Positions 2,698 through 43,963 of a stretch of DNA of 60,553 nucleotides are shown piece after piece. A program made the translations under genes and the position numbers. Within the stretch, counting starts at the first letter, position 1. Each line of letters opens with the position of its first letter. The notes beneath the pieces are model-generated. The model did not search any database. It saw only the letters and a list, made by a program, of their open reading frames with translations, and was not told the DNA's origin. Source of the DNA: a virus (taxonomy: Duplodnaviria; Caudoviricetes); IMG/VR virus record IMGVR_UViG_3300030372_003986, positions 1 to 60,553 of that record. One strand, 5' to 3'.

Positions 2698-2901
2698 CTA
2701 TAGTTTCTTAAACAAATCAATATTTGCATTTGCTAATTCGTTTCCTTCAGCAATCATCCTTACTTTCTCAGCTCTCTTAATTGCCTTTTTCATATTGGCT
2801 AATTTTGTTAGACCCATTTCAGGTGATGCTGCGTGATTAATTAATCTACCGTCTCTTACTAAGTATCCTTCCTCTGAAGGCTTTAAATTCCAATGTGACA
2901 T
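2698..2901 (-). CDS. Hypothetical protein (likely start MSHWNLK at 2901)
   Basis: The track's TTG start at 2928 lies inside a TATCTTTG promoter (2926-2933). Confidence 0.6.
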   Translation of the reverse strand: MSHWNLKPSEEGYLVRDGRLINHAASPEMGLTKLANMKKAIKRAEKVRMIAEGNELANANIDLFKKL

Positions 2902-3140
2902 ATCTCCAAGTTTATTTGTTCTGTACAAAGATACAAAAAATATATTAGATATATGGGGTCTTTGGGTTCCCCCCTATCACCGCAGCCGGACCCCCATTCG
3001 GAAACCGATATTTTTTTTTAGGGGGGGGTGATGTTTTCACCTGTTGGTTCCAATTTTTTTGGCTTTTTTTTCTACCTGTTGTACCCTGTACACATAGGTA
3101 GGTAGGTACTACCCTACTGCCCTCGTTACTACTGCTCTAC

Positions 3141-3191
3141 TTACCCTGTTAACCTTCCCTCGTTACCCTTCCCTCGTTACCCTCTTACCCT
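3141..3191. repeat. TTACCCT / CCTTCCCTCGTTAC tandem repeats; G4 motif on - strand
   Basis: 14-mer twice (3153-3180); CCC runs at 3144, 3157, 3166, 3171, 3180, 3188. Confidence 0.8.
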
Positions 3192-3216
3192 AAAGACAAG
3201 TATACATTAGTGTATA

Positions 3217-3232
3217 GTGTCTTTGAAGACAC
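3217..3232. repeat. 16-bp palindrome GTGTCTTTGAAGACAC (intergenic)
   Basis: Direct match. Confidence 0.9.
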
Positions 3233-3487
3233 AAAGAGATAACTCTCTTAAAGAGATAGAGAGAGATTCTCTTTAACCCCTTGCCGATGCTTTTAACCCT
3301 ATAACAAAACATATGGAACAAACGATTCTTAACTACTTAACTAACAGTAAGTAAAAGAGAATTATACATTCAATGAAAAAAAATTGTAATTCATAGTTGA
3401 TTATTCAATTAATTGTTGTATTATTGTACCAACAATGAACGAAGGATAGTCCTTCAATAAACATAAAACACTAAAAATCAAACAATT

Positions 3488-4219
3488 ATGGAACATTTAA
3501 TGCAAATTGAGGCAGATTTTTTATCATCTGCACAGGTTAGGTCAGAAGTTAATTTTGACACAATTTTTAATCTACAGTCAGCAGTTAGCGATGCGAAGAA
3601 GACGAAGTTCGAGAAATCTTTGAAGTTAGCGAAGTTGGTGTACAAATCGGTACAATGGTTCAACCTTGAATCAACCAAAGAATTATTAGAAGAGAATGGT
3701 ATCGAATGGACAAACACCGAAGTATTTTTTGAAACAGTATTTTGTTGGAAGAAGTCATTCGGATACAAGATGGTGAAGTGCGGTAAACTACAGGAGGAGC
3801 AATCTAATGTGGTAACGAAATTCAAAAGAAAGTGTACTCAAACCGAGAATAGCGGAGAGGATGCAAAGCGAAGTGTTGAAGCATTATTGAAGTTTGCGAA
3901 AGCGGAAGAGAATGGTGAAGAAACACAGGTAGCAAGAGAGAAAACGTATGCGACATTCAGCATATCGAAAGATGGTGTAAATGGTGAAAAAGGATACTCA
4001 ATGAGATTAACTGATAGCGGTATCTCTATCAATGGTGAGATAGCAATCGAAGGTGATGAGTTTAGCAATCACTTATACCACACATTCGAGATTATGAGAA
4101 GGATGATTGAAGTAGCATCAGATGATGAGATTTCTTCTTCTATCGTAGAGGAAGATGAGAGTTTTCAAGATGTAAGATTTGATGAATTACAAGAGGATAG
4201 AACGACAGGAATAGCATAA
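3488..4219 (+). CDS. Hypothetical early protein
   Basis: 243-aa ORF with A-rich leader; first gene of the + arm. Confidence 0.75.
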   Translation: MEHLMQIEADFLSSAQVRSEVNFDTIFNLQSAVSDAKKTKFEKSLKLAKLVYKSVQWFNLESTKELLEENGIEWTNTEVFFETVFCWKKSFGYKMVKCGKLQEEQSNVVTKFKRKCTQTENSGEDAKRSVEALLKFAKAEENGEETQVAREKTYATFSISKDGVNGEKGYSMRLTDSGISINGEIAIEGDEFSNHLYHTFEIMRRMIEVASDDEISSSIVEEDESFQDVRFDELQEDRTTGIA

Positions 4220-4248
4220 ACTAATAATAAACCAATAAAAACCACACA

Positions 4249-5280
4249 ATGAGAAATTTAAGAACAAATAGAGGTGTTACATTCGATAACTTGAATGACA
4301 CAAGTGATAGAGGAAGAGTAGTGTCTTACCACAGTAAACCACATCCTGTTAAAAGAACCAAAGCAACCAAGTTAGAGTTGAATGGGATTAAAAGAGAGGA
4401 TAGAAGAAACATCTTAATAGATGGTGAAGAAGTAGAGTCAAAATTCACTATTGGATTTGAGATTGAGAAAACACAATTGCATAGAGGATGCGTACAGGAA
4501 TACCCTTTATTCTGCGGATTTGAAACTGACTCTTCTTGCGGATATGAAGCAGTTACTCACGTGCTACCATTACTACCTAAGTCAGTATGGAGAACAAAGG
4601 TGTTTAATATGTTTCACGAGGCAACCAAAGTAATAGATGACAATTATTCACCAAGCAATTCAAGGTGCGGTGGTCACATTACTATCGGTGTTGAAGGGAT
4701 GGATGGTTCAGAGTTAATGTCAAGAATCAGAAAGTTCGTTCCCATTCTTTATGCAATATTCAGAAAAAGATTACACAATGGATATTGCTATGGTAACCCA
4801 CAATTAGTAGATGTAGATGAGGAAAGAGGTTTGAACAGTAACGTAGGAAAGTATAGTGTAGCATTGAACAAAGGATTCGGTGTAGAATTTAGATTACCTG
4901 CGAGAGTTACATCGGTTAAGCAAATGATTCGCAGATACGAGTTGTTTTATCACATAGTTGACTTTGCGGTCAATAGACCAAATGCTACTTACAATTCATT
5001 TATTAAAGCAATTAAGCCAATTCTACTATCAATGTATAATCAAGATGAAGAGAAAGTAGTTCAATTAATTGACCTGTCAACACATTTTAGAAAATTCATC
5101 TTTGGCGGAAGAGTAACCTACACAATAGTTGGATGGTTAGAAGGATGGTGGGCTAATAGAAGTAGAGATGGACTTGTTATAAGTCACCACAATCGTCAAT
5201 TGAAGCAGATGATTGCTCAAGATGGATATTCAGAGTGTATGAGGGTTTGGAGAAGTACCAACCAAGAGTTGATAAGTTAA
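4249..5280 (+). CDS. Putative amidoligase (COOH-NH2 ligase type 2, glutamine synthetase-like)
   Basis: TIGFEIE, DSSCGYE, CGGHITIG, VEFR motif order. Confidence 0.75.
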   Translation: MRNLRTNRGVTFDNLNDTSDRGRVVSYHSKPHPVKRTKATKLELNGIKREDRRNILIDGEEVESKFTIGFEIEKTQLHRGCVQEYPLFCGFETDSSCGYEAVTHVLPLLPKSVWRTKVFNMFHEATKVIDDNYSPSNSRCGGHITIGVEGMDGSELMSRIRKFVPILYAIFRKRLHNGYCYGNPQLVDVDEERGLNSNVGKYSVALNKGFGVEFRLPARVTSVKQMIRRYELFYHIVDFAVNRPNATYNSFIKAIKPILLSMYNQDEEKVVQLIDLSTHFRKFIFGGRVTYTIVGWLEGWWANRSRDGLVISHHNRQLKQMIAQDGYSECMRVWRSTNQELIS

Positions 5281-5293
5281 TAATGAGAGGGTA

Positions 5294-5309
5294 GTGTCTT
5301 CAAAGACAC
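5294..5309. repeat. 16-bp palindrome GTGTCTTCAAAGACAC (arms extend to GTAGTGTCTT/AAGACACTAC)
   Basis: Direct match, just upstream of hammerhead 1. Confidence 0.9.
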
Positions 5310-5314
5310 TACTC

Positions 5315-5368
5315 CCTGTCGACAGGTGTGTGCCTGTCCTGATGATGACTCAAAAGAGTCGAAACAGG
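5315..5368 (+). ncRNA. Type III hammerhead ribozyme 1
   Basis: CCUG-UC^ / stem I GACAGG-ugugug-CCUGUC / CUGAUGA / U + stem II GACUC-aaaa-GAGUC / GAAA-CAGG. Confidence 0.85.
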
Positions 5369-5390
5369 AATTAATAATAAAATAATAACA

Positions 5391-5609
5391 ATGAAAACAT
5401 TAAACATTATTCAAAACACAGCATTATCATTAATGACATTATTCGTGTGGTCAGCACTAATCAGAGTGGTAATACACATTCTAAAAACACATAACTTTCA
5501 ATGGATAGATATCTTATACTTAGGGTTTGTGTTTACGTTTATGGGATTCCTCTCTTATATGTTAGGATACATTTTAATCGGGGTATGGAGAGAGTCACTT
5601 AAAAAATAA
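5391..5609 (+). CDS. Small two-TM membrane protein
   Basis: Two hydrophobic segments; directly downstream of hammerhead 1. Confidence 0.65.
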   Translation: MKTLNIIQNTALSLMTLFVWSALIRVVIHILKTHNFQWIDILYLGFVFTFMGFLSYMLGYILIGVWRESLKK

Positions 5610-5692
5610 TCTCTCAAATGGCGGAGAGGGTTTGTGTGGTGCATCCCTCTCCTAACCATTTAATTAATAGCATCACACATAAATTTATAACT

Positions 5693-6046
5693 ATGGAAAA
5701 TCAAACAATCAAATACATCATAGATTTCAAATCGACATATGGAAACTATTCCACATTTGAAAAAGAGTTTACTAACGAAAACCATTTCAATAATTGGTAC
5801 GATTTAATGAGTCGTAAAGGACACAAAATAATTGGTGTGCATTTAACTAACGACCATTTCAAAACTGTACTTTATAACAGGATAGTAGACGAGATAAGTA
5901 AAATGTATTTCAATGGTTCATTCAATCCTGTTGAAGACATATTAGAGGACATAAAAGAAAAGAATCCTAACAATTTATATGTGAAGTGGGATGAAGTACA
6001 AAGTGAAGTTAGCAATCAAATTCAAACATTATTAAAAACTAAATAA
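5693..6046 (+). CDS. Hypothetical protein (likely start MENQT at 5693)
   Basis: A-rich leader before 5693; the upstream extension is a hairpin. Confidence 0.6.
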   Translation: MENQTIKYIIDFKSTYGNYSTFEKEFTNENHFNNWYDLMSRKGHKIIGVHLTNDHFKTVLYNRIVDEISKMYFNGSFNPVEDILEDIKEKNPNNLYVKWDEVQSEVSNQIQTLLKTK

Positions 6047-6047
6047 A

Positions 6048-6212
6048 ATGGAAAAGCAATATTACTTTCACGTTAGATATGCAGGGAAATTAATTGAAGT
6101 CGTAGCGGCTCACACTAAATGGGAGGCGATAGATAGAATCTACAATAAAAACATTGGAAGATTCGATTGGATTCTTCGAGAAAAATTTACTGCGGTCAGA
6201 AAAAAAAGATAA
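6048..6212 (+). CDS. Small hypothetical protein (54 aa, not in ORF track)
   Basis: MEKQYYFHVRYAGKLIEVVAAHTKWEAIDR..., 1 nt after the previous stop. Confidence 0.55.
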   Translation: MEKQYYFHVRYAGKLIEVVAAHTKWEAIDRIYNKNIGRFDWILREKFTAVRKKR

Positions 6213-6219
6213 AAAAAGA

Positions 6220-6251
6220 TTTGGATATGTCGAATTATTGTCGTATATTTG
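6220..6251 (+). promoter_or_regulatory. Bacteroidota-type promoter (TTTG...TATATTTG)
   Basis: -33/-7-like elements upstream of the GATase gene. Confidence 0.65.
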
Positions 6252-6276
6252 TCTAAATCAAACATTAACTAGGCGA

Positions 6277-6292
6277 GTGTCTTCAAAGACAC
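6277..6292. repeat. 16-bp palindrome between promoter and GATase start
   Basis: GTGTCTTCAAAGACAC in an operator-like position. Confidence 0.9.
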
Positions 6293-6313
6293 AAACCACA
6301 AACATCAAACATT

Positions 6314-7408
6314 ATGTGTGTAATTATTATTAAACAAAAAAATCAAATGATGCCACGAGAGGTGGCAAAAAATTCAGCACGAATCAATCCTCACGGATTA
6401 GGTGTTGTTTGGCTAGATACGTTTGAAGTAACGTATCACAAATCAAGTGAGTATAAAGTTATCATAACTGATAGACCATTCATTGCTCACTTTAGATATG
6501 CTACCATTGGTAAGGTCTGCAAAGAAAATACTCATCCATTTATATGTGGTGAGAACAAAGATGAGTTACTAATGATGAATGGAACAATCAAAGGGTATGG
6601 TAATAAGAATATGACCGATACCGAAGATTTAGCAATTCAACTTGGTAATACCAAAAGGAATTCTTGGAAGAAACAACTTGCGAAATTCGATGCAAGATTC
6701 GTTTCGGTTAATACCAAATTCAAAAACTTTCAAATCTACAATAGACATCTTTATACTTATAAGGATGGTATATGGTATTCAAAAACCAACGTCTTACAGG
6801 ACAACTTAATAGCAGTATATGGAACATTGAAAAAAGGATATGGTAACTACTATGGATATCTTTCTAACTCACAATATATAGGTGGTGGTAAGACCAAAGA
6901 CAAATACCCTTTAATCGTTAATGGCTTACCATATGTATTGGATGCGAAAGGTAAAGGTAAGAACGTGGTGGTAGATGTATTCAAAGTGTCGGATGCTCAA
7001 TTAAAGCGAATTGACAGTTTAGAATCTCATCCCCAATGGTATGTGAGAAAACAAATACCAATCAGCGTGAATGGTAAAACATTAACCTGTTGGTTGTATT
7101 TCAATAAAGAGGCAGAATTGTATTGGGATGGAACTAATCATAAAGAATCCTATGAGCAAGGATTTAGGTTTAGAACTCCAATCATTGAGGCAACAAAAGT
7201 AGAAGAGGTATTAGATACTCCATACGAATGTACTCAATACGATTTATTTGAGGATGATTTGGAACAGGAATTTAAGCCACAGGCGGAATCGCCTTTGTGT
7301 AAAGATACAAATTGTAATGAAGATTTAGTGTTTGATGGGTTTAACAACTTTTATTGTAGTGGGTGTGATACTTGGTATAGTGAGGAAGAGGTAATGAGTG
7401 TTAGTTAA
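6314..7408 (+). CDS. Class II glutamine amidotransferase fused to gamma-glutamylcyclotransferase (AIG2-like) and C-terminal Cys cluster
   Basis: N-terminal MC, NPHG, HFRYAT, ENTHPF, NG; then VYGTLKKG...IDSLE; C-terminal CxxxxC...CxxC. Confidence 0.85.
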   Translation: MCVIIIKQKNQMMPREVAKNSARINPHGLGVVWLDTFEVTYHKSSEYKVIITDRPFIAHFRYATIGKVCKENTHPFICGENKDELLMMNGTIKGYGNKNMTDTEDLAIQLGNTKRNSWKKQLAKFDARFVSVNTKFKNFQIYNRHLYTYKDGIWYSKTNVLQDNLIAVYGTLKKGYGNYYGYLSNSQYIGGGKTKDKYPLIVNGLPYVLDAKGKGKNVVVDVFKVSDAQLKRIDSLESHPQWYVRKQIPISVNGKTLTCWLYFNKEAELYWDGTNHKESYEQGFRFRTPIIEATKVEEVLDTPYECTQYDLFEDDLEQEFKPQAESPLCKDTNCNEDLVFDGFNNFYCSGCDTWYSEEEVMSVS

Positions 7409-7423
7409 ACGGCAGAAAAGAGA

Positions 7424-7439
7424 GTGTCTTCAAAGACAC
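7424..7439. repeat. 16-bp palindrome immediately upstream of hammerhead 2
   Basis: GTGTCTTCAAAGACAC. Confidence 0.9.
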
Positions 7440-7440
7440 T

Positions 7441-7495
7441 TTCCTGTCTATGAGTGGGTACTCATACTGATGAAGCCAAAAGGCAGAAACAGGAA
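7441..7495 (+). ncRNA. Type III hammerhead ribozyme 2
   Basis: UUCCUG-UC^ / stem I UAUGAGU-gggu-ACUCAUA / CUGAUGA / A-GCC-aaaa-GGC-A / GAAA-CAGGAA. Confidence 0.8.
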
Positions 7496-7516
7496 TTAAT
7501 AATAAAATTAAATAAA

Positions 7517-7738
7517 ATGGAAGAACAAACTAAATTTCAAAGATTAGCAGAATATCGAGTAAACAAAGCATTGAGAAATCTGCAAACAATAACTGACTTG
7601 TCGAGTCACACCACTTATACTAAGCAAGAGGCAGATAAAATCATTAATGCTTTACAGGATAAAATAGTAAAGATGAAGGATGAGTTTAAGTTAGGACTAA
7701 AACGAATTGAAAGAGGTGATAAACCATTTACTTTTTAA
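7517..7738 (+). CDS. Hypothetical protein (likely start MEEQT at 7517)
   Basis: KFQRLAEYRVNKAL helix; the track's upstream extension is the ribozyme. Confidence 0.65.
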   Translation: MEEQTKFQRLAEYRVNKALRNLQTITDLSSHTTYTKQEADKIINALQDKIVKMKDEFKLGLKRIERGDKPFTF

Positions 7739-7768
7739 TTACTAACCCAAATAATAAAATTAAATAAA

Positions 7769-8023
7769 ATGAAAAATTATAGTAAAAAAGAAATAGAAAA
7801 ATATTGGACTGACTTAATATCAAAACATTTAGTTGGTAAAAAAATAACAAAAGTAGAATACATTGGAGATGATGAAATGGATAAAAATATGTGGCATAAA
7901 CGACCAATAGCAATTTGTTTAGACAATAAACATTGGCTAGTACCTATGATGGATGATGAGGGAAATGATGGGGGAGCAATATCAACCACAATTTCAGAAC
8001 TACAAACAATACCTGTAATATAA
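7769..8023 (+). CDS. Hypothetical phage protein
   Basis: LVGKKITKVEY...DDEGNDGGA; A-rich leader. Confidence 0.7.
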   Translation: MKNYSKKEIEKYWTDLISKHLVGKKITKVEYIGDDEMDKNMWHKRPIAICLDNKHWLVPMMDDEGNDGGAISTTISELQTIPVI

Positions 8024-8045
8024 TTATTAACTAAAATTAAATAAA

Positions 8046-8441
8046 GTGAAAAATATAATAGAACATTACCTAACCCATCATTTAAGTGTAGAACAAATCG
8101 AATCTCTTTACGAGAAAACTTTTGGGAATCCAATAAACCATTATCCAAGTATGGAAGTATCTCAAATGATAGATGAGATTGCAGAAGAATCACGAAACTT
8201 ATTTCTTAAAGATGTATCAAGCGAAGATTTAAGACAAGAGTTAGAACTACGAGGATACTACACCAACAATTTATGGCACACACAAGATGTCACCAACAAT
8301 CATAACATTTTAGATGAGGATGCTATGGAAGTATTGGATAGTGTAATGCAAGGTGAATGGTTGGTTGAAAACATCTTTGGATTAATTAATGACAAAGTTA
8401 CTGATGTAATTTTTGATGAAGTAAAAACTAAAAACCAATAA
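8046..8441 (+). CDS. Hypothetical acidic protein
   Basis: ORF in early operon. Confidence 0.6.
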   Translation: MKNIIEHYLTHHLSVEQIESLYEKTFGNPINHYPSMEVSQMIDEIAEESRNLFLKDVSSEDLRQELELRGYYTNNLWHTQDVTNNHNILDEDAMEVLDSVMQGEWLVENIFGLINDKVTDVIFDEVKTKNQ

Positions 8442-8443
8442 TT

Positions 8444-8635
8444 ATGAATTTAGACGAATTAAAAAACCAATTACAAGAAGACAACAGAATTAATTTAATT
8501 ATAGATAAACAAGAATTAGATTATATAACTATGCTAATAGAACAAAACTTAGAGGATAATCCACAAGAATATGGAGAACTCCATACACAAATGTTGGAGG
8601 ACTTAAATAATAAACTAACAATCTTAAACAAATAG
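8444..8635 (+). CDS. Hypothetical protein
   Basis: Tightly packed ORF. Confidence 0.55.
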   Translation: MNLDELKNQLQEDNRINLIIDKQELDYITMLIEQNLEDNPQEYGELHTQMLEDLNNKLTILNK

Positions 8636-8640
8636 AAATT

Positions 8641-8820
8641 ATGGACAAAGACACCAAATATATAGTGTTGCCAAATGGCGACTATATACAAATAAAATTT
8701 GAATTAGAAGGAATAGTATACGATAGATTCGATAAAGATGATGAACATCAAGAATCATATGGATACGACTTTTATACTGACATTGCTGACATAAATTTAC
8801 TTATTAATAAAAACAAATAG
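8641..8820 (+). CDS. Small hypothetical protein (59 aa, not in ORF track)
   Basis: MDKDTKYIVLPNGDY...; bounded by junction repeats. Confidence 0.55.
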   Translation: MDKDTKYIVLPNGDYIQIKFELEGIVYDRFDKDDEHQESYGYDFYTDIADINLLINKNK

Positions 8821-8825
8821 AAACT

Positions 8826-8993
8826 ATGGAAGAACAAATTAAAATTTTAGAAGATTGTATTGTAGTAATCGAAAATTGGAAATGGAATATGTATGCGGAT
8901 GATGATGAGGTAGGTGTTGCAGTAGAATCAATCAAAGATGTAATTAAAGAATTAAAAGAATATCAATTAAAAAATATACATATTATAAAATAA
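8826..8993 (+). CDS. Small hypothetical protein (55 aa, not in ORF track)
   Basis: MEEQIKILEDCIVV...; starts within a junction repeat. Confidence 0.5.
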   Translation: MEEQIKILEDCIVVIENWKWNMYADDDEVGVAVESIKDVIKELKEYQLKNIHIIK

Positions 8994-9024
8994 TATAGTT
9001 AAAAAAAAATAACAAATAGAAACT

Positions 9025-9330
9025 ATGGGAATACATATAACTAAAGACAATTTTGTATGGTTAGATATAACTAACAAAATGAAAAAAGCAAAAGGAAATG
9101 AGCGAGATGAAATATGGGTAGGCAACGAAATATTTGCTCTGCACGATGATGATTCAGAATCTCTAATTGAATCACACGAAGAATTAGAAGAGGCAATAAA
9201 TTTAGGACTCAAAATAGGAATAGAAGTTGGGCATATTCCTACTCCCACTTTACAAAATTGGTCAACGATAGATAAGAAATTAATAGATGGGTTTTGGTAC
9301 GCAAAAATAAGTGAACTAAAACTTGCATAA
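9025..9330 (+). CDS. Hypothetical protein
   Basis: ORF with leader repeat. Confidence 0.65.
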   Translation: MGIHITKDNFVWLDITNKMKKAKGNERDEIWVGNEIFALHDDDSESLIESHEELEEAINLGLKIGIEVGHIPTPTLQNWSTIDKKLIDGFWYAKISELKLA

Positions 9331-9377
9331 CTAAAGGAAATATACTATTTTTATACAAACATTAAACATTAAATATT

Positions 9378-9566
9378 ATGACATTAAGTAAAATGGAACT
9401 AGCAATAATAAGATATACCGAAAGCAATGGAAGGACGTATATAGTTGACATTACAAATGATGTTGACAAGTGGATAGTCGATAACAATTCTACTAGGGAT
9501 GAAGACCAACAAGAAAAATTATCTGACTTTAATATAGAATATAAATCAATTAAACTTTATAAATAA
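9378..9566 (+). CDS. Hypothetical protein
   Basis: TAATG-coupled to the next gene. Confidence 0.55.
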   Translation: MTLSKMELAIIRYTESNGRTYIVDITNDVDKWIVDNNSTRDEDQQEKLSDFNIEYKSIKLYK

Positions 9567-9859
9567 TGAAAGTAAAAATTCAAAACCGAAGTGTCTACCA
9601 CAAATTTGCAGAAGTAGAAATAGAAGTAGACAAAGATGACTTGGAGCATTTCAAACTTGACAATGGGAAATACACCAACATCGTAGATTATTTAGAACAC
9701 AACTCCCATCTTTATGATGAGCAGATAGATAAGGCTATAAGTGACGCAGAGTATGTACACGGAACGGGTTTATATGATTTTAAAGGAATGGATGATGCAG
9801 AGTCAGATAGCGAATGGAGATTCGAGTGTGATGAACTTAAAACAGGAGGACACTTATAA
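9566..9859 (+). CDS. Hypothetical acidic protein
   Basis: Translationally coupled on both sides. Confidence 0.65.
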   Translation: MKVKIQNRSVYHKFAEVEIEVDKDDLEHFKLDNGKYTNIVDYLEHNSHLYDEQIDKAISDAEYVHGTGLYDFKGMDDAESDSEWRFECDELKTGGHL

Positions 9860-10113
9860 TGGCAACACTAATCAAATCAAACGGAAATAAAATAGAAAAC
9901 TTTAATCACAAAGGTTTAGAGGCAAAACAAAAAGCAGTAGGTGGATACATTGAGGTTGTGTACACTCACAAGTATGTAATCTATGTAAATGAAGATGGAA
10001 TAAACAAACGTCTTCCACTTAATTTAGAAGTGTCAGCGTTAGTTGGCAGGTACATACTTGGAGATGCATTAGTTATGACTCATAAAGAATCCCGTGAAGA
10101 AGATGAAAAATAA
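9859..10113 (+). CDS. DUF3846-like protein
   Basis: QKAVGGYIE...VNEDG...LPLN...ILGDAL. Confidence 0.65.
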   Translation: MATLIKSNGNKIENFNHKGLEAKQKAVGGYIEVVYTHKYVIYVNEDGINKRLPLNLEVSALVGRYILGDALVMTHKESREEDEK

Positions 10114-10130
10114 AAAACAAAATAAAAAAG

Positions 10131-10186
10131 AAACCGTCACCCCATCCAAGACAGTAAGTTTTACATTGGCTTGTATGGGAAGGTTT
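10131..10186 (+). other. Long imperfect intergenic hairpin
   Basis: Nested pairs AAACC/GGTTT, CCCAT/ATGGG, CAAG/CTTG. Confidence 0.45.
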
Positions 10187-10219
10187 TACGTTATTTACTT
10201 TAATTAAAATCAAATAAAA

Positions 10220-10570
10220 ATGAAATCAATTTATCTTAAAGAGGCAAACTCTGAAAAATTGCGACACAAATCAGACAGGGGATATATTACTCGGATGCAC
10301 CAACTATCTGATAATAAAACTCCTTTTACTTTAAGTGTCTTCAAAGACACAGGAAGATTAACTCCTATAGAATTATACAAAACCCATTATCCTGATATAG
10401 AATTGCATAAAGATTGCAACGGTGTAATGGTATATATATGTGGAACTTATATCGAACTTATGAAAGATGGAGTATGGATTTTACATCTTGGTGGAGAACA
10501 AATAGAATCAAAAGATATTACACAATTAGAATCTAAATTATTTAAATGGTTAAAAAACGAAATCAAATGA
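10220..10570 (+). CDS. Hypothetical protein (palindrome at 10335-10350 inside)
   Basis: 116-aa ORF. Confidence 0.65.
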   Translation: MKSIYLKEANSEKLRHKSDRGYITRMHQLSDNKTPFTLSVFKDTGRLTPIELYKTHYPDIELHKDCNGVMVYICGTYIELMKDGVWILHLGGEQIESKDITQLESKLFKWLKNEIK

Positions 10571-10842
10571 AAACCGAAGAATTAATTAAAGAAGAGGCGA
10601 GAAAAATAGTAATGCTCCTTCTTGAAAAAAACAAAGCATACGGGGATACTGCAAACAATCCTCCTAAAATATTTAGCAAATTAGATGCGGTTGAAGGTTT
10701 GTGTGCAAGAATAGACGACAAACTTTCTCGAATTAAAATGCGAGGAATAACTGACGCAACTGAAGATAGTGTCAGCGACTTAATCGGATACCTAATTTTA
10801 TTAAAAGTGCAATTAAAAAATAATAAAAATTTGGACAAGTAA
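10567..10842 (+). CDS. Nucleotide-modification-associated (Nmad1/DUF1599-like) protein
   Basis: KNKAYGD...RIDDKLSR...EDSVSDLIGYLIL; probable start MKTEE at an ATGA overlap. Confidence 0.65.
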   Translation: MKTEELIKEEARKIVMLLLEKNKAYGDTANNPPKIFSKLDAVEGLCARIDDKLSRIKMRGITDATEDSVSDLIGYLILLKVQLKNNKNLDK

Positions 10843-10884
10843 TAAACATTGTGTATATTTACACACTAATTAAAATCAAATCAA

Positions 10885-11088
10885 ATGTCAAAATCAAAAC
10901 AACTATTTACGGAGTCAAGAGAATCCGAAGTGCAGACAAATTTTGATAATGGAGAGTTTCTCCACAATCAATGGATGAGTCATTTAGAGGCACAAAAAAA
11001 TCACAAGTCAAATCAGGCGGTAGATATATTAAATGAACTTTTTGTTTCATTTGGAAATATCTATGGCTTAAAAAAACAATCAAAATGA
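10885..11088 (+). CDS. Hypothetical protein
   Basis: Preceded by a promoter-like TTTG...TATATTTA. Confidence 0.6.
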   Translation: MSKSKQLFTESRESEVQTNFDNGEFLHNQWMSHLEAQKNHKSNQAVDILNELFVSFGNIYGLKKQSK

Positions 11089-11372
11089 AAAAGGGAATAT
11101 TTGAAGATTATGTAAAAAAGGTTCTTGCCTTATTTTGTATATCAAAAGAAGATTTGTTTGCTAAATCTAAACGTAGAGATTTGGTAGATGCAAGACACTT
11201 ACTATATTATTTGTGTTACCATAGACCAATGCAGATTAGATATATCCAAAACTATATGGCAGAAAATGGATATAAGGTTGGACATTCATCTATCATTCAC
11301 GGAATCAATCAAGTGTCTGAAAAAGCAAATGAAGATAAAGATTATGAAACTGTGTGTCAAAGTTTGACATAA
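11085..11372 (+). CDS. DnaA C-terminal (domain IV)-like HTH protein
   Basis: SKRRDLVDARHLLYYLC...GHSSIIHG. Confidence 0.7.
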   Translation: MKKGIFEDYVKKVLALFCISKEDLFAKSKRRDLVDARHLLYYLCYHRPMQIRYIQNYMAENGYKVGHSSIIHGINQVSEKANEDKDYETVCQSLT

Positions 11373-11383
11373 ATTCAATAACA

Positions 11384-11803
11384 ATGTACACATTAGAAGA
11401 TATAATGCAACAAGCAACTGAAGATGAATACGCTACAATTGTAGATGGAAATAATATTATTTCTCGTCTTCTATATGGATGCAAAATATCTAAAGACCTA
11501 ATAACAGGAAAAATAGAAATACTTAATACTGCAAAAGGAGGTGAATGGTATTCAAAATTAACAACGGCAGAATTAAATTATTTTTTTGAATTTGGTTGGA
11601 GAATTGGTGTGTATGAATTATCTTTGTCTAATTATCGTACAAAACTTGACAGGGTTGAACGATTAATAAAAGCAGAAATAAACGGTAGGAGAAACCCAAA
11701 ACAAATTATCTCACTAAAAGCATCACGAGAAAATATAATGAATCGTTATGCTAAAATTAAACAAAAGTATAATCAAATTAAATCAAAACATTATGACCAC
11801 TAA
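11384..11803 (+). CDS. Hypothetical protein
   Basis: ORF; probable start MYTLED. Confidence 0.6.
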   Translation: MYTLEDIMQQATEDEYATIVDGNNIISRLLYGCKISKDLITGKIEILNTAKGGEWYSKLTTAELNYFFEFGWRIGVYELSLSNYRTKLDRVERLIKAEINGRRNPKQIISLKASRENIMNRYAKIKQKYNQIKSKHYDH

Positions 11804-12335
11804 ATTAAAAACAGTAAACATTAAAGGAAAGGCATATGTAGAAGTAAACGAAAGATTGCGTTACTTTAGACACACATATCCAAATTATTCATTAACATCT
11901 GAAGTTTTAGAAAAAACTGAAAACTCCATTTTAATTCTTGCGTCTATTCTTAATGAAGAGGGTAGAGTCATAGCAACAGGTATGGCGGAAGAAGAAAAGG
12001 GAAGTACCTTTATTAATAAAACATCTTATGTAGAAAACTGCGAAACATCTGCGTGGGGAAGAGCATTAGGAAATCTTGGAATAGGTTTAGAATCTTCAGT
12101 AGCATCTGCCGAAGATGTACAAAATGCAATTGCCAATCAAAACAAAGAAGTGTCTTCAAAGACACCTAAAGAAACAACTAAAATTAAATTAGAATTAGAT
12201 TCTGATAATTGGGTAAAAGCATTAAAATGGATTAGTGCTAATAAAGAAATGGGGTTAACTAAAATAGTTAAAACACTACAACAAAAGTATTCCGTACCTA
12301 ATATAGTTAAAGCAGAAATCAAAAAAAATATATAA
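11793..12335 (+). CDS. Putative single-strand annealing protein (Rad52/Sak-like)
   Basis: IKGKAYVEVNERL...VENCETSAWGRAL; upstream of exonuclease and SSB; palindrome at 12150. Confidence 0.6.
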   Translation: MTTKLKTVNIKGKAYVEVNERLRYFRHTYPNYSLTSEVLEKTENSILILASILNEEGRVIATGMAEEEKGSTFINKTSYVENCETSAWGRALGNLGIGLESSVASAEDVQNAIANQNKEVSSKTPKETTKIKLELDSDNWVKALKWISANKEMGLTKIVKTLQQKYSVPNIVKAEIKKNI

Positions 12336-12336
12336 G

Positions 12337-13071
12337 ATGAACGCAGAGATATTAGAGCAACTTAAAAATGATGATGAATACTACAATGGTCTTGGAAGAC
12401 AGTTTTTATCTAATTCAGACATTGGTGCATTATTAAAAAATCCAAAAGAGTTTGGTGTTAAAAGAAAAGATTCCAAAGAGTTTGCAATGGGTAGATATTT
12501 CCATCAGTTATTTCTCGAACCCGACAAGGCAAAGAAGGTTAAACATATTGATGTGTCATCAAGAGCAACTAAAAAATATAAAGAATCTCTTGCTGAAATT
12601 CAAAAAGAACTTATTCTTTTAACTAAAGAAAAAGAAGAGGTAGAGTTATGGGTGGACACTATGAAAACAAACTTTGACTTTTTCAATTACATCAATAATG
12701 AAAAAAATAAATATGAAGTACCTGCCGTTACTGAACTTTGTGGAGAACTATGGAAAGGTAAGGCAGATATAGTAGGCGAAGATTTTTTATTCGATTTGAA
12801 AACAACATCAAATATTAATGATTTTCGTTGGAACTTTCGTAAGTATAATTACGATAGTCAAGCATATATTTATTCTTCTTTATTCAAAAAACCAATGATG
12901 TTTCTCGTTCTTGATAAAACAAGTTTAATGATGGGAGCATATACCGTTAGTCAAGAGAGTTTAGACAGGGGAAAAGATAAGGTAGAAAGAGCAGTAGAGG
13001 TTTATCAAAAATTTTATGGCGACAATCCTACTGAAGATATTAACCAATATTATTTTTATGAGGAAATTTAA
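12337..13071 (+). CDS. PD-(D/E)XK exonuclease (RecE/ExoVIII, DUF3799-like)
   Basis: LSNSDI, GRYFH...LEP, KGKAD...DLKTT, YDSQAYIY. Confidence 0.8.
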   Translation: MNAEILEQLKNDDEYYNGLGRQFLSNSDIGALLKNPKEFGVKRKDSKEFAMGRYFHQLFLEPDKAKKVKHIDVSSRATKKYKESLAEIQKELILLTKEKEEVELWVDTMKTNFDFFNYINNEKNKYEVPAVTELCGELWKGKADIVGEDFLFDLKTTSNINDFRWNFRKYNYDSQAYIYSSLFKKPMMFLVLDKTSLMMGAYTVSQESLDRGKDKVERAVEVYQKFYGDNPTEDINQYYFYEEI

Positions 13072-13225
13072 GAAGATATTAGTGTCTTTGAAGACACGAA
13101 TATTTAAAACACACCGAGTATTAAGAGTGGATGTTCCAAACACTTGCAATACTCGTGCCGAGAAGAGTCAAATCATCAAGGCAACTATTAGTTTTTTGGA
13201 ACACAAAATTTTAATAAATAATTAA
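13058..13225 (+). CDS. Small basic hypothetical protein (palindrome at 13082)
   Basis: Fills the gap before the SSB; probable start MRKFKK. Confidence 0.45.
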   Translation: MRKFKKILVSLKTRIFKTHRVLRVDVPNTCNTRAEKSQIIKATISFLEHKILINN

Positions 13226-13227
13226 TT

Positions 13228-13494
13228 ATGACACAAAAAGAAAAAGTGTTTGCGGATGGATTTAGTTTCAAACGTAGAGAAAATGCTCCTGACTTTGTAG
13301 TAGGGAGAGTTAGTGTAAAATGTGATGATGCAATCGCATTTCTAAAACAACACCAAAAGAATGGTTGGGTTAATCTGAATATTAATCAGGCAAAGTCACT
13401 TTCATATTATATGGAACTTGATACATTTGAACCTAAAAAGGAAACGGAAACTGCTCCACCAAAAGAGGCAGAAACCGAAGACCTACCTTTCTAA
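13228..13494 (+). CDS. Putative single-stranded DNA-binding protein
   Basis: Acidic C-terminus EDLPF; recombination context. Confidence 0.6.
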   Translation: MTQKEKVFADGFSFKRRENAPDFVVGRVSVKCDDAIAFLKQHQKNGWVNLNINQAKSLSYYMELDTFEPKKETETAPPKEAETEDLPF

Positions 13495-13500
13495 ATTAGA

Positions 13501-13525
13501 GGAGGAGGAAACTCCTCCTTTTTTT
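13501..13525 (+). terminator. Intrinsic terminator
   Basis: GGAGGAG-gaaa-CTCCTCC-T7. Confidence 0.9.
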
Positions 13526-13535
13526 GCTCATTGAG

Positions 13536-13679
13536 ATGCTGACTTTTGTTTTCTTTATCTATCATTATCTTTTATTTTATTATTTTATTTTTTTTCATAC
13601 GATAGAAAAAAGTTAACAAAGTTAGCAACTCATTGATAATCAGACACAAACTTAGCAGAAAGTTAACATCAACTCAACA
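13536..13679. repeat. Iteron-like array 2 / putative replication origin
   Basis: Units at 13610, 13619, 13649, 13660, 13671; inverted unit at 13536; AT-rich tract; directly upstream of primase. Confidence 0.65.
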
Positions 13680-13693
13680 TTAAAATTAAATTT

Positions 13694-16108
13694 ATGACAT
13701 CAAAAATAACAATCTTCCGAAACATCAAGTCAACGGATGCTCCGTTTTACAGGGAAGTTGAAGCCATTATAGACAGGATAAAAAATGGTGCTTCAAAGGA
13801 ATTAGTAAAAAGAATTAGGTTAGAAAAAAAGAAATCTGACCGTAACGAACTTAAAAAACAACTTCCTGCGATTTGTTTTAGTGGAACATTTACAAAGCGT
13901 AATGATAACTCAATTCAAGAACATTCAGGATTAATCTGCTTGGATTTTGATGGTTACGACAAAAGTAAAGAACTTTTACAAGACAAAGAAAACATAACTA
14001 AATCTCCATACACCTATTCAGTATTTGTTTCTCCATCAGGCAGAGGCTTAAAGGTTTTAGTTAAAATACCTCAAGATGTAGATAATCACGTTCATTACTT
14101 TAACAGTTTACAAAAACATTTTAATAATGAGAAGTTTGATGTAACCTGTAAAAATTTATCTCGTGTGTGTTACGAATCATACGACCCCTTGATATACGTA
14201 AATGAGAACTCTTCTTTATGGGATAAAATAGATGAAAGAGAATACCAAGAAAAACATCAATATAGAGATGCTCCAACTCTTCCTATTACTGATGAAAATA
14301 AAATTGTAGAGATATTAACGAAATGGTGGACTAAAAAATATCCAATGGAGGAAGGACAAAGAAACCACAATTGTTATGTCCTTGCTTCAGCCTTTAATGA
14401 TTTTGGAATTAATAAATCACTTGCCGGTTATATTCTTTCTAATTATCAAACACAATCTTTTAATGAGAGAGAAATAAATAGAACTATAGATTCGGCTTAT
14501 GCTAATACTCAAAACTTTGGAACTAAATATTATGAAGATGAAGAAAGAGTAAATAATCTAAAAATAAAACTAAAGCGTGGTGCATCAAAAAAAGAACTCC
14601 GTCATTCATTAGAAGAATCCCAAGTGGATGGCGATATAATAGAGGCAGTTTTAACTCGTATAGATGAAGAGGCACAAGAAACTCAGTTTTGGACTAAAAA
14701 TGAAAAGGGAGTAATTAAAATAATTCATATACTATTTAAGCAGTTTTTGGAAGACAATGGATTCTATAAATATTGCCCTGAAGGAAGTAAGAATTATGTA
14801 TTTGTAAAAGTAACAAACAATCTTATTGACCACACCGATGAAAAAGAAATAAAAGATTTTATTCTAAATCACTTAATAGAAATAGATGATTTAAGTATCT
14901 ATAATTATTTTGCAGACCATACTCGTTTTTTCAAAGAAGAGTTTCTAACCCTATTGTCTACAATTGATATCTATTTTATTCAAGACAATAAAGACACCTC
15001 TTATCTATATTATAGAAACTGTGCAGTTAAGATAACTAAAAAAGAAGTAGTTATGATTGATTATATTGATTTAGGAGGGTATGTTTGGAAAGACCACGTT
15101 ATTGATAGAAACTTTACTTTGTGTTCTCCAACTACTGATTATGCAACCTTTATTAAAAACATATGTAATTCTGAAGAAGATAGGGTGAAGTCAATGGAAT
15201 CAACAATTGGATTTTTAATGCACGGACATAAAAATTTATCTTATTGCCCTGCGGTTATTTTAAACGATGAGGTTATCTCTGACAATCCTGAAGGTGGAAC
15301 AGGTAAAGGAATCTTTATGAATGCCTTAGCACAAATGAAAAAAGTAGTTACTATTGATGGTAAGTCTTTTACGTTTGAGAGAAGTTTTGCTTATCAGCTT
15401 GTTTCAGCAGACACACAAATTCTTGTGTTTGATGATGTAAGAAAGCACTTTGATTTTGAAAGATTATTTAGTGTGGTGACTGAAGGATTAACTCTTGAAA
15501 AGAAAAATAAAGATGCCATTAAAATTCCATTTGAAAAGTCACCGAAGATATCTATAACAACCAACTATGCAATAAAAGGAAGTGGTAATTCTTTTGCTCG
15601 AAGAAAATGGGAACTTGAATTACATCAACATTATCAAAAGAATTTTACTCCTATAGATGAATTTGGTAAATTATTATTTGGGGATTGGAATGATGATGAA
15701 TGGTGTGCGTTTGATAATTATATGGTTCAATGTTTACAAGGATATCTAAACACAGGATTAGTTGAAAGCAAATTTGTTAATCTAAAAATTAGACAATTAT
15801 CTGCCGAAACTTCTCACGACTTTATTGAGTGGTGTGGTTTAATAAATGGTAGTGAAAAAAATCCTTTACTACAAAATGATATTAGAATAAATCTACAAGA
15901 GTGTTATCTTGATTATATAGAACAGTATCCCGATTATGCTCCTAAATCTAAATTAACACTAAGCAGAATTAGATTTAACAAATGGATGTCTGCTTTTGCA
16001 GTTTATAAATCAGGAGTTTCACCACAAGAAGGGAGAGATGAAAAAGGAAGATGGATGAGAATAAAACCAATAGAGGAAATTAATATTCAATCCAAACTCA
16101 ATGTATAA
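13694..16108 (+). CDS. Primase-helicase (BT4734/VirE-N-like AEP + PriCT + SF3-like helicase)
   Basis: KKQLPAICFSG, SGLICLDFD, SPSGRGLK, EGQRN, GGTGKG Walker A, VFDD, ITTN. Confidence 0.85.
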   Translation: MTSKITIFRNIKSTDAPFYREVEAIIDRIKNGASKELVKRIRLEKKKSDRNELKKQLPAICFSGTFTKRNDNSIQEHSGLICLDFDGYDKSKELLQDKENITKSPYTYSVFVSPSGRGLKVLVKIPQDVDNHVHYFNSLQKHFNNEKFDVTCKNLSRVCYESYDPLIYVNENSSLWDKIDEREYQEKHQYRDAPTLPITDENKIVEILTKWWTKKYPMEEGQRNHNCYVLASAFNDFGINKSLAGYILSNYQTQSFNEREINRTIDSAYANTQNFGTKYYEDEERVNNLKIKLKRGASKKELRHSLEESQVDGDIIEAVLTRIDEEAQETQFWTKNEKGVIKIIHILFKQFLEDNGFYKYCPEGSKNYVFVKVTNNLIDHTDEKEIKDFILNHLIEIDDLSIYNYFADHTRFFKEEFLTLLSTIDIYFIQDNKDTSYLYYRNCAVKITKKEVVMIDYIDLGGYVWKDHVIDRNFTLCSPTTDYATFIKNICNSEEDRVKSMESTIGFLMHGHKNLSYCPAVILNDEVISDNPEGGTGKGIFMNALAQMKKVVTIDGKSFTFERSFAYQLVSADTQILVFDDVRKHFDFERLFSVVTEGLTLEKKNKDAIKIPFEKSPKISITTNYAIKGSGNSFARRKWELELHQHYQKNFTPIDEFGKLLFGDWNDDEWCAFDNYMVQCLQGYLNTGLVESKFVNLKIRQLSAETSHDFIEWCGLINGSEKNPLLQNDIRINLQECYLDYIEQYPDYAPKSKLTLSRIRFNKWMSAFAVYKSGVSPQEGRDEKGRWMRIKPIEEINIQSKLNV

Positions 16109-16346
16109 TATTCATCAAGCAATGAATAACACCTATAATATTTTAATGGGTTATAGAACACTAAAAGATTTAGTTTTAAAAAATGAAGGATATTTTATAT
16201 TTAATCCTGAAGAACCTGTGTCTTTAAAGACACTTGAAACTTTGCTAAATTATTTTGCTGACGAAGAAGAATATGATAAATGTATTGAAATTAAAAAACT
16301 AATTAAAGATGGCGAAATTATTGGGAGAGACTTACGCAAGAACTGA
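16101..16346 (+). CDS. Hypothetical protein (palindrome at 16218)
   Basis: YFADEEEYDKC motif. Confidence 0.6.
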   Translation: MYNIHQAMNNTYNILMGYRTLKDLVLKNEGYFIFNPEEPVSLKTLETLLNYFADEEEYDKCIEIKKLIKDGEIIGRDLRKN

Positions 16347-16557
16347 TTGCGACCACTTAAAACAACTACACATTTTGAAACGAGTTATGTTTCAAACGTA
16401 TAAAAGAAAAATAGGAAGAGGAAAACAAGCAACTTATGTAGAAGAATTTAAGTGGCAACAAGAGGGGGATGATGAAGTGAGAGAGAATATATTATACTCA
16501 ATTAAAATTTTTGAAAAGAGATGTTTAGATTTAGAGAATACCAAAAAAAAATTATAA
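16309..16557 (+). CDS. Hypothetical protein
   Basis: Overlapping operon ORF. Confidence 0.55.
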   Translation: MAKLLGETYARTDCDHLKQLHILKRVMFQTYKRKIGRGKQATYVEEFKWQQEGDDEVRENILYSIKIFEKRCLDLENTKKKL

Positions 16558-17753
16558 TAGATGCAATACCTATACTAAAAAAACATAGGTTTATTTATCT
16601 CGCAATGGAGGTAAGAACAGGTAAAACTTTTACAAGTTTAGGTATAGCACAACAGGTACAGGCAAGGAATGTTTTATTCTTAACTAAAAAGAAAGCCATA
16701 AAAAGTATTGAAGATGATTACAATCAATTAAATCCAACCTTTACTCTTTGTGTTATTAATTACGAAAGCATTCACAAAGCTCCAAAAGTTAAGTGGGATT
16801 TTATAATAATAGACGAGGCACATACTTTGGGAGCATTCCCTAAACCAAGTAAACGTGCAAAGCAGGTAAAAGAAATTATAAAAAACCAAAGTCCATATGT
16901 GTGTTTGATGTCAGGAACCCCAACACCTGAGAGTTACAGTCAAATGTATCATCAGGTGTATGGGATTCCGTCAAATCCATTTAAGGACTATGTAAGTTTT
17001 TATAAGTTTGCTAAAGATTATGTAAACGTAAAACAAAGAAAAATCAATTCTTTATATGTCAATGATTATTCAAGAGGACTAACTAAAATTCTTGATAAAA
17101 TAAAGCCAATGACTATTTCTTTTACACAAAAAGAGGCAGGTTTTGTAAATAATATTAATGAAGAAGTGTTAGAAGTAGAGATGGTTTCTCGGACCTATGA
17201 AACCGCATCATCTCTTAAAAAACATAGAGTGGTTGAAGGAAAGGATGAGGTTATACTTGGTGATACTCCTGCTAAATTAATGCAGAAACTCCATCAACTG
17301 TATTCAGGAACAATAAAGTTTGAAAGCGGAAACTCAATGATATTAGATTATAGTAAAGCTATCTACATAAAACAAAAGTTTAAGTTCCAAAAAATTGCAA
17401 TATTTTATAAATTTAGAGAAGAGTATAATGCATTAAAAGAGGTATTTAAGGATAAGTTATGTAATTCTCTTGAAGAATTTACAACCACCGATAAAAATAT
17501 AGCGTTACAAATAGTAAGTGGTAGAGAAGGAATATCATTAAGACAAGCACAAGCGTTAGTGTACTATAATATAGATTTTAGTGCTACAAGTTATTGGCAA
17601 AGTCGAGATAGGATGACAACAAAAGATAGAACGAATAGCAAGGTGTATTGGATTTTTGCTAAAGGAGGTATAGAAAAAGAAATTTATAAAGCCGTTATAA
17701 AAAAGAAAGATTATACTGTACGTCACTTTAAAAATGATTTCCTAAATTTGTAG
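16521..17753 (+). CDS. SF2 (SNF2-like) helicase
   Basis: FREYQ, RTGKT, IIDEAH, SGTP, GREGISL, QSRDR. Confidence 0.88.
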   Translation: MFRFREYQKKIIIDAIPILKKHRFIYLAMEVRTGKTFTSLGIAQQVQARNVLFLTKKKAIKSIEDDYNQLNPTFTLCVINYESIHKAPKVKWDFIIIDEAHTLGAFPKPSKRAKQVKEIIKNQSPYVCLMSGTPTPESYSQMYHQVYGIPSNPFKDYVSFYKFAKDYVNVKQRKINSLYVNDYSRGLTKILDKIKPMTISFTQKEAGFVNNINEEVLEVEMVSRTYETASSLKKHRVVEGKDEVILGDTPAKLMQKLHQLYSGTIKFESGNSMILDYSKAIYIKQKFKFQKIAIFYKFREEYNALKEVFKDKLCNSLEEFTTTDKNIALQIVSGREGISLRQAQALVYYNIDFSATSYWQSRDRMTTKDRTNSKVYWIFAKGGIEKEIYKAVIKKKDYTVRHFKNDFLNL

Positions 17754-17755
17754 TT

Positions 17756-17986
17756 ATGAAAAAGTTTATTTCCTTTTTCATAGTATGGGTGAGTCAGAAT
17801 CTTGCAATGCCTTTTTGGATAGTAGGACACATTCATTTATCTACCAATGTGTATGCTGATATAAAAGAAATTTTGGCATCGGCAGGAATGAATTTAATTG
17901 TATTGGTAGGATTTATAATTGATTATAGAAATAATTCAAAAAGTGACGGAACAACAAATACAAAAAAAAAGAATAGAAGAACTTGA
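17756..17986 (+). CDS. Small membrane protein
   Basis: Two hydrophobic segments. Confidence 0.55.
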   Translation: MKKFISFFIVWVSQNLAMPFWIVGHIHLSTNVYADIKEILASAGMNLIVLVGFIIDYRNNSKSDGTTNTKKKNRRT

Positions 17987-19229: not shown

Positions 19230-19416
19230 AAATTTTTCAGCCATAGACCACGAAAGACTTCGTTCCATTAATATGTTAATGGATGGCTTTTATGAAAACC
19301 TTTCTGAAATTTATGAATCAATTGTAGATAGAGAGATAGACAAAGCTCAACACGAAATCAAAAAAACCATAGAGGAACTTAAAAGACTTCACGACTCTAT
19401 GCAAGATGAGTTATGA
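19222..19416 (+). CDS. Hypothetical protein
   Basis: Coupled ORF. Confidence 0.55.
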   Translation: MNKNFSAIDHERLRSINMLMDGFYENLSEIYESIVDREIDKAQHEIKKTIEELKRLHDSMQDEL

Positions 19417-43952: not shown

Positions 43953-43963
43953 TTTCTTACATA

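Follow-up and report, generated by a model that had tools for sequence, protein, structure and literature searches.

A type III hammerhead ribozyme motif with a recurrent A10.1/A11.1 apposition between early genes of a marine phage

A type III hammerhead motif (HH2) was identified at 7441-7495 of a marine phage genome, and it probably works as a ribozyme that cuts an early polycistronic mRNA. The motif was conserved in related phages, with covarying stems, at a syntenic site and at a fixed place between a palindromic hairpin and a start codon. An initial annotation had described a hammerhead after the gene for a GATase-GGCT protein. This description, with the assignment to type III and to the coding strand, was supported by the Rfam model RF00008, by a separately built covariance model (R1), by a motif descriptor and by covariation among relatives.

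The window, that is, the whole stretch of DNA that was analysed, was a complete virus record; it measured 60,553 bp, carried direct terminal repeats and had a G+C content of 33%. Genes occupied 3488-20262 on the plus strand, and 60177-20255 and 2901-177 on the minus strand; HH2 was located near the beginning of the plus-strand cluster of small genes at 3488-20262. The same DNA was present in marine metagenome runs from several studies. The phage is marine, and the plus-strand cluster comprises its early genes. The features around HH2 were as follows.

6314-7408, plus strand: GATase-GGCT gene upstream of HH2, 364 aa, stop codon at 7406-7408
7420-7443, plus strand: palindromic hairpin directly 5' of HH2, GAGA-GUGUC UUCAAA GACAC-UUUC
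7441-7495, plus strand: HH2, type III hammerhead, recognized by RF00008, model R1, the descriptor and the minimum-energy fold
7496-7516, plus strand: A/T-rich leader between HH2 and the next start codon, without a Shine-Dalgarno-like run
7517-7738, plus strand: downstream gene, 73 aa, ATG start at 7517

The protein encoded upstream matched Pfam GGACT (E 2.2e-20) and PHROG 2520, while its Pfam matches to GATase_4 and GATase_6 were weak and under the cut-offs; the predicted product is a glutamine amidotransferase plus gamma-glutamyl cyclotransferase-like protein. The 73-aa product of the downstream gene had no Pfam match and a weak PHROG match, and its reading frame would be the first cistron on the 3' cleavage product. 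Elsewhere in the genome, a GroEL-like chaperonin was encoded at 754-2361 on the minus strand (Pfam Cpn60_TCP1, E 2.1e-55; PHROG 5725), and a single open reading frame of 3268 aa occupied 20255-30061 on the minus strand. The minus- and plus-strand clusters were separated by a divergent intergenic region at 2901-3488, which contained 2.9 copies of the iteron-like repeat CCCTCGTTACCCTT at 3144-3183, homopolymer runs near 3010-3030 and one copy of the palindrome at 3217. It could serve as an origin or have a control function.

HH2 was composed of the following parts.

7441-7447 with 7489-7495, plus strand: stem III, UUCCUGU/ACAGGAA
7448, plus strand: C17, the cleavage-site residue, with the predicted cut between C7448 and U7449
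7449-7466, plus strand: stem I and loop I, 7449-7455 pairing with 7460-7466 (UAUGAGU/ACUCAUA) around the loop GGGU
7467-7473, plus strand: core strand C3 to A9, CUGAUGA, from the sequence and the orthologue alignment
7474-7485, plus strand: stem II, with A7474, GCC at 7475-7477, AAAA at 7478-7481, GGC at 7482-7484 and A7485
7486-7489, plus strand: core strand G12 A13 A14 plus A15.1, GAAA, in which A15.1 pairs with U7447

The core was complete (C3 U4 G5 A6 N7 G8 A9, G12 A13 A14, the A15.1-U16.1 pair and a residue other than G at position 17). The cleavage triplet was GUC, and stems I and II were closed by loops while stem III was open. The cut after 7448 that had been predicted at the outset coincides with the putative site indicated by RF00008, R1, the syntenic alignment and the descriptor. 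A UG-rich loop I and an AAAA loop II had also been described; loop II stood as it was, and the extent of loop I was revised from GGGU to the 6-nt UGGGUA in the family alignment, matching the family consensus UGuGUG. By the same alignment, stem I consisted of six pairs (UAUGAG/CUCAUA) and a U-A that was U/G in most relatives. The G10.1-C11.1 pair, near-universal but not absolute in hammerheads, was absent, and A7474 and A7485 occupied positions 10.1 and 11.1 at the base of stem II instead. The minimum-energy fold of the isolated 55-nt RNA was the hammerhead (-16.4 kcal/mol, z -2.57), which was equalled by 3 of 200 shuffles. Across the alignment of syntenic orthologues, positions 3-6 (C, U, G and A), G8 and A9 were invariant, as were G12, A13, A14 and A15.1; position 7 varied, and this position is free to vary in the hammerhead family. 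The U, G, G and U of loop I and two A residues of loop II were also invariant in 16 orthologues, and the stems varied. A putative tertiary contact between loop I and loop II, which in hammerheads serves activity at physiological Mg2+, is suggested, and it fits the invariance of the loops without being proved by it.

Statistical support for the motif came from several searches. RF00008 (Hammerhead_3) aligned to HH2 from end to end with 38.2 bits (E 5.2e-07 in a 301-nt slice), below the gathering score of 48.5, and no hammerhead match was returned by Rfam at the gathering threshold, by the whole-window E-value scan or by the own-genome search. Copies of the HH2 type escape the default thresholds of Rfam and are thus under-annotated. 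The 17 hammerheads from which model R1 was made all came from viral contigs other than the window. When it was run on the whole window with filters off, HH2 scored 62.1 bits (E 3.9e-13) and ranked above its sister copy HH1 (57.2 bits), whereas the next-best match in the 60.5-kb genome was a non-hammerhead with 11.9 bits. The topology-free descriptor, which accepted type I, II or III, found exactly two sites in the window, HH1 and HH2, and none in 20 of 20 shuffles. The pattern CTGATGA-N(6-36)-GAAAC had three matches against 0.28 expected; the third, at 26394-26433 on the minus strand, lay inside the 3268-aa reading frame without stems and was rejected as a chance occurrence. Chance resemblance to a short, degenerate motif is one explanation to consider for HH2: the core motif is short, and the loose form CTGANGA..GAAA had 16 occurrences in the window where 5.5 were expected. 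The E-value from the independent model, the empty shuffles and the syntenic conservation with covariation all argue against this explanation, which has a negligible probability and is, within the reach of sequence analysis, already refuted. The sole Rfam matches of the window-wide scans were two sub-threshold L20_leader matches at 42449-42558 and 43913-44021, both on the minus strand, which are really hairpin plus U-run terminators between late genes; the second contained a variant of the palindrome at 43931.

An exact-pattern scan of viral contigs for the same stem III and core gave 100 stretches, 61 of them distinct with the two of the window included. In many of these relatives the elements came in the same order: first a GUGUC/GACAC hairpin, next the hammerhead (loop I UGNGUG-like, loop II AAAA), and finally an ATG preceded by an A/T-rich leader. 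Five relatives, each of about 60 kb, were searched over their entire records, and R1 gave four convincing matches each in G002 and G004 and one each in G001, G003 and G005, the weak matches in G001 (16 bits) and G003 (13.2 bits) being omitted from these counts. Phages of this clade carried from one to at least five hammerheads, grouped in a single early gene cluster. In the five records, stem III covaried (CCUGU/ACAGG, GCUGU/ACAGC and UCCGU/ACGGA), and the triplet was GUC, GUU or GUA. A covariance model search in relatives, which the initial annotation had named as a check, yielded 71 matches with R1 over 42 sources, 62 of them distinct. In the alignment of these 62 members, which was fitted to model R1, 96.7% of the pair cells were standard against 65.2% after shuffling, a value reached by 0 of 500 shuffles; 13 of 15 pairs were altered on both sides, and registers slid along the alignment were at most 45.4% paired. 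Many of the members came from related phages, so the counts do not represent independent events.

The GATase-GGCT protein had homologues in many related contigs (43-74% identity by tblastn at the fetched loci). The 3' flank of the gene was readable in 22 contigs, the window included, and a type III hammerhead followed directly in 16 of them. Another one, L001, had a type I hammerhead, and no hammerhead was detected after the gene in the remaining five (L033, L023, L119, L121 and L123), so the element is dispensable or replaceable. The 16 syntenic copies (14 distinct), aligned with MAFFT, were 93.8% paired against 69.4% after shuffling, and 0 of 500 shuffles reached this value. Stem I was 100% paired with six of six pairs covarying, and 12 of 15 pairs overall changed on both sides. 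The stems, whose conservation in related phages had been named beforehand as the point on which the identification could fail, were thus conserved. The covariation that had first been offered as evidence of selection was that between the two copies of the window, a thin argument because two sequences are few; the alignments of 62 members and of 16 orthologues provide the stronger evidence.

The genes adjoining the hammerheads differed among relatives. L001, whose GATase-GGCT homologue was 53% identical, carried type I hammerheads at 3272-3330 and 5158-5218 on the plus strand, syntenic with the two type III hammerheads of the window; stem III of the copy at 5158-5218 was formed by the palindrome of L001 itself, of which the genome had eight copies. 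In L033, a palindromic hairpin and then a T-run were located about 50 nt past the GATase-GGCT homologue, which ended at 5908, and a hammerhead was absent; this hairpin and T-run look like an intrinsic terminator. Among cultured phages, no relative carrying the element was found by megablast, tblastn or blastn. With 4200-9200 as the query, megablast found no match among GenBank phages, and blastn of 7420-7500 against cultured phages gave chance-level matches (E >= 0.7). The GATase-GGCT protein matched four records of cultured phages by tblastn, the best being MW202828.1 (52.8% identity over 77% of the query), in which the next gene began 36 nt past the homologue and left no room for a hammerhead.

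The apposition of A10.1 and A11.1 at the base of stem II was the most unusual feature of HH2. Positions 10.1 and 11.1 form the most conserved pair besides A15.1-U16.1 according to the available parts of PMC3088659, which also report that a natural U10.1-U11.1 variant was active (Perreault et al. 2011) and cite earlier work in which U-U was the best tolerated mismatch. Among the 62 distinct family members, these positions were G-C in 44, U/U in 10, A/A in 2, C/A in 1 and U-A in 1, and 4 members had an additional base after A9, as in HH1. A scan of viral contigs for CUGAUGA-A-NNN-AAAA-NNN-A-GAAAC gave 32 matches in 31 stretches. Stem II had three Watson-Crick pairs in 19 of the 32, and all 19 were full hammerheads (18 of type III and L133 of type I); the inner bases of the other 13 were unpaired, and these sequences were unrelated. 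The distinct A/A hammerheads that passed the descriptor numbered 13. Among the distinct syntenic orthologues, six were A/A, five U/U and three G-C, and the A/A orthologues were the six copies following the most similar GATase-GGCT proteins. In the closest orthologue, L125 (74% protein identity), the A/A was kept while stems I and III covaried. The mismatch recurs in hammerheads and in the closest orthologues and was therefore inherited and maintained. On these sequence comparisons, the A10.1/A11.1 apposition is a conserved trait of a subclass, neither damage nor decay. It had been called atypical in the initial annotation, which is right with respect to the general consensus and wrong if it is taken as a defect of HH2, since 13 distinct hammerheads share it. 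The A/A form may cleave more slowly because, in the parts of PMC3088659 at hand, the 10.1-11.1 pair is highly conserved and U-U is tolerated best among the mismatches. Full-text literature searches and those parts of PMC3088659 gave no mention of a natural A10.1/A11.1, although the supplements of the paper may list some. Across 93 distinct hammerheads from the fetched loci, the class at 10.1/11.1 went with the residue at position 17 (A/A: U17 in 10 and C17 in 3; U/U: A17 in 10, U17 in 2 and C17 in 1; G-C: C17 in 47 and A17 in 5), an association that is not evidence because the search required C17, which biased the G-C set, and because it is confounded with lineage.

The second hammerhead of the window was located further upstream in the same gene cluster.

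5315-5368, plus strand: HH1, type III hammerhead, recognized by R1 (57.2 bits, E 6.3e-12), the descriptor and the fold

HH1 and HH2 had CCUGUC, CUGAUGA, GAAACAGG and the AAAA of loop II in common, together with the 3' flank GGAAUUAAUAAUAAAAU. HH1 had stems of its own (GACAGG/CCUGUC and GACUC/GAGUC) and one additional U after A9; the sequences thus agree with the earlier description of the two copies as having the same core and different stems that still pair. The fold of HH1 had a z of -4.33, and Rfam gave no match for it at E <= 1. Upstream of HH1 were a gene for a 343-aa protein at 4249-5280 and then the same palindromic hairpin at 5289-5314, and the site after the homologue of the 343-aa protein was also widely occupied by hammerheads in relatives.

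The palindromic hairpin was not confined to the hammerheads. The 16-mer with GTGTC/GACAC arms and a 6-nt spacer, mostly TTCAAA, was present 14 times in the window, where 0.47 occurrences were expected, starting at 1694, 3217, 5294, 6277, 7424, 10335, 12150, 13082, 16218, 20240, 26179, 34288, 43931 and 51101. Two of the 14 carried a hammerhead, and some copies were apparently within reading frames. The palindrome occurred in 10-19 copies in each of four relatives, with 0 for the control pattern, and G001 had a different palindrome in eight copies. The arm sequence, and not only the pairing, was kept across phages, which hints at a putative binding site for a protein on DNA or RNA. An upstream hairpin was also common among these ribozymes: of 51 distinct phage hammerheads, 35 had a fold of -10 kcal/mol or below in the 36 nt upstream, as did 73 of the 1020 windows drawn at random from these loci (Mann-Whitney p 2e-17). 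A narrower rule, that the 3' end of the upstream product is always fully paired, held for HH1 and HH2 in their minimum-energy folds and was rejected on the 51 distinct hammerheads, in which 2.59 of the last 6 nt were paired and shuffling of the 5' flank gave 2.83. A scan of 3000-9000 called no plus-strand terminator at HH1 or HH2, and promoter-like sites in the same range were not enriched (23 against 28.0 in shuffles).

On the 3' side, the distance from the end of the 5-pair core of HH2 (7493) to the ATG was 23 nt, and the distance from the 3' end of the hammerhead to the next ATG that opens a reading frame was 15-25 nt in all 17 copies examined. The stretch 7441-7495 could also be read as coding for an N-terminal extension of the downstream gene from GTG 7454, given that the frame 7454-7738 is open in the window and that 4 of the 16 syntenic copies keep the frame open along the entire hammerhead. 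The other 12 of the 16 have an in-frame stop inside or 3' of the hammerhead, so the hammerhead is not an N-terminal extension; moreover, the substitutions are paired across helices and not codon-wise, and the ATG keeps its fixed distance downstream. A coding function is accordingly given hardly any probability.

The upstream context changed the predicted folding of HH2. With 32 nt of upstream sequence, the preferred fold paired 7411-7415 with 7444-7448, so that stem III of HH2 cannot form. The nearest-neighbour model, which leaves out tertiary contacts, gave -30.0 kcal/mol for this fold and -25.6 kcal/mol for the best fold compatible with the hammerhead, a gap of 4.4 kcal/mol; the corresponding gap for HH1 was 0.6.

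The most likely role of HH2 would be the cutting of the early polycistronic mRNA. We infer the cleavage, the nature of the ends and the consequence for mRNA stability because the chemistry of the family is established and because such processing was proposed by Perreault et al. 2011. HH2 would be transcribed within the polycistronic mRNA, its three helices would form about the conserved core, and an internal transesterification would sever its own backbone after C7448. Of the two products, the upstream one would be the GATase-GGCT mRNA, with a 2',3'-cyclic phosphate end 5 nt past the palindromic hairpin. The downstream product would begin with a 5'-OH and the folded stems I and II, followed by about 20 unstructured A/U-rich nt up to the AUG. 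A cut after C7448 would thereby separate the neighbouring cistrons while transcription went on uninterrupted, and the separation could give the cistrons different stabilities or translation rates.

The main alternatives concern what the motif does. HH2 could be a crippled or very slow hammerhead, whose cleavage is reduced to a negligible level by the A/A, the stem II of only 3 bp and the competing helix upstream, and which persists for another reason or as a recent relic. The strong conservation of the 10.1-11.1 pair and the preference for U-U among mismatches (in the parts of PMC3088659 at hand) are compatible with this, as are the 4.4 kcal/mol by which the context fold favours the inactive alternative and the RF00008 score under gathering. 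However, the A/A is kept in six distinct syntenic orthologues and 13 distinct hammerheads with covarying stems I-III and an intact core, a relic would not retain 100% pairing in stem I, and the family model R1 scores HH2 higher than HH1; we consider a crippled ribozyme unlikely. Somewhat less likely still is a purely structural role, in which the hairpin, the three-way junction and the leader would act as a binding site for a protein, as an anti-termination site or as a module boundary that favours recombination. Such a role would suit the genome-wide distribution of the palindromic hairpin, mostly without a hammerhead (2 of 14 copies with one), the 3' flank shared by the two window copies and the variation of the adjoining genes among relatives. 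It would not account for the invariant positions, which are exactly those of the catalytic core, nor for L001, which has a type I topology with unrelated stems at the same site. The type I hammerhead at the syntenic site fits selection for cleavage over selection for one shape or sequence.

An extension of the cleavage model, tentative and rather improbable as it stands, though less so than the two alternatives above, is that the hairpin and the hammerhead form a unit that makes 3' ends on read-through transcripts: it would leave a hairpin-capped end, as an intrinsic terminator does, would not stop the polymerase and could be tuned in strength. As part of the same tentative proposal, the A/A and U/U classes, with residues other than C17, may be deliberately slowed or conditional, their folding competing with that of the palindromic hairpin. 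The proposal further supposes, with the same reserve, that the palindromic hairpin may bind a phage protein and that the separation of the cistrons may be regulated during infection. Two findings fit it: the syntenic site holds a type III hammerhead, a type I hammerhead with the palindrome as stem III, or the palindrome and a T-run, depending on the phage, and the alternative fold of HH2 is 4.4 kcal/mol more stable.

HH2 belongs to a kind that is already known, the phage and prophage hammerheads that flank genes. HH2 resembles the type III hammerheads of RF00008 (clan CL00010) in its full core, GUC triplet, loop-closed stems I and II and open stem III, and differs from them in having A/A instead of G-C at 10.1/11.1 and just three Watson-Crick pairs in stem II. 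Unlike the viroid and satellite-RNA hammerheads of the RF00008 kind, it is encoded in a DNA phage. In the available parts of PMC3088659, Perreault et al. 2011 describe multiple hammerheads that flank genes in prophages and propose that phage hammerheads process long transcripts into gene-length mRNAs. HH1 and HH2 are both intergenic, on the coding strand and within the plus-strand cluster, and so show the same gene-flanking arrangement of several close hammerheads between short phage genes. As far as those parts go, the emphasis there is on type II in bacteria and the mismatch is U-U, whereas the hammerheads here belong to type III (one relative has type I at the corresponding sites) and the mismatch is A/A. 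Each copy here is also joined to a clade-wide palindromic hairpin and a leader of fixed length, a combination that was not found in those parts of the paper. The same source describes HHphage of the haloviruses HF1/HF2, for which a mapped transcript 5' end lies at most 3 nt from the cleavage site; HHphage is a high-salt core variant from an archaeal virus, 13 nt from a start codon, in contrast to the canonical core of HH2 in a marine phage. Phage genomes have been known to carry hammerheads since 2011, and a review (PMC6765202) treats their function there as an open question.

The points that set this locus apart are the recurrent A10.1/A11.1 class, the fixed unit of hairpin, ribozyme and leader, and the switch of topology at syntenic sites. 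The detail that this locus would add to the proposal of Perreault et al. is the stable hairpin at the predicted end of the upstream product. With genomes of about 60 kb, this clade of marine phages is a clean natural experiment on the role of hammerheads, on mRNA ends and on mRNA stability, and it bears on how much change positions 10.1/11.1 tolerate.

Variation among strains was compared over 5200-7600 in contigs of four DNA runs. Two contigs that spanned the whole range had three differences each, neither hammerhead being affected. A contig of about 1% divergence covering 6175-7520 had 15 differences, none of them in 7441-7495 and the nearest at 7412 and 7416; about 0.6 differences are expected per 55 nt, so the unchanged HH2 in these runs is uninformative either way. 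Just 3' of HH1, at 5382-5390, a strain of about 1% divergence from one marine run had 248 other letters in place of 7 nt, which resembles an insertion or an exchange of cassettes at the module boundary.
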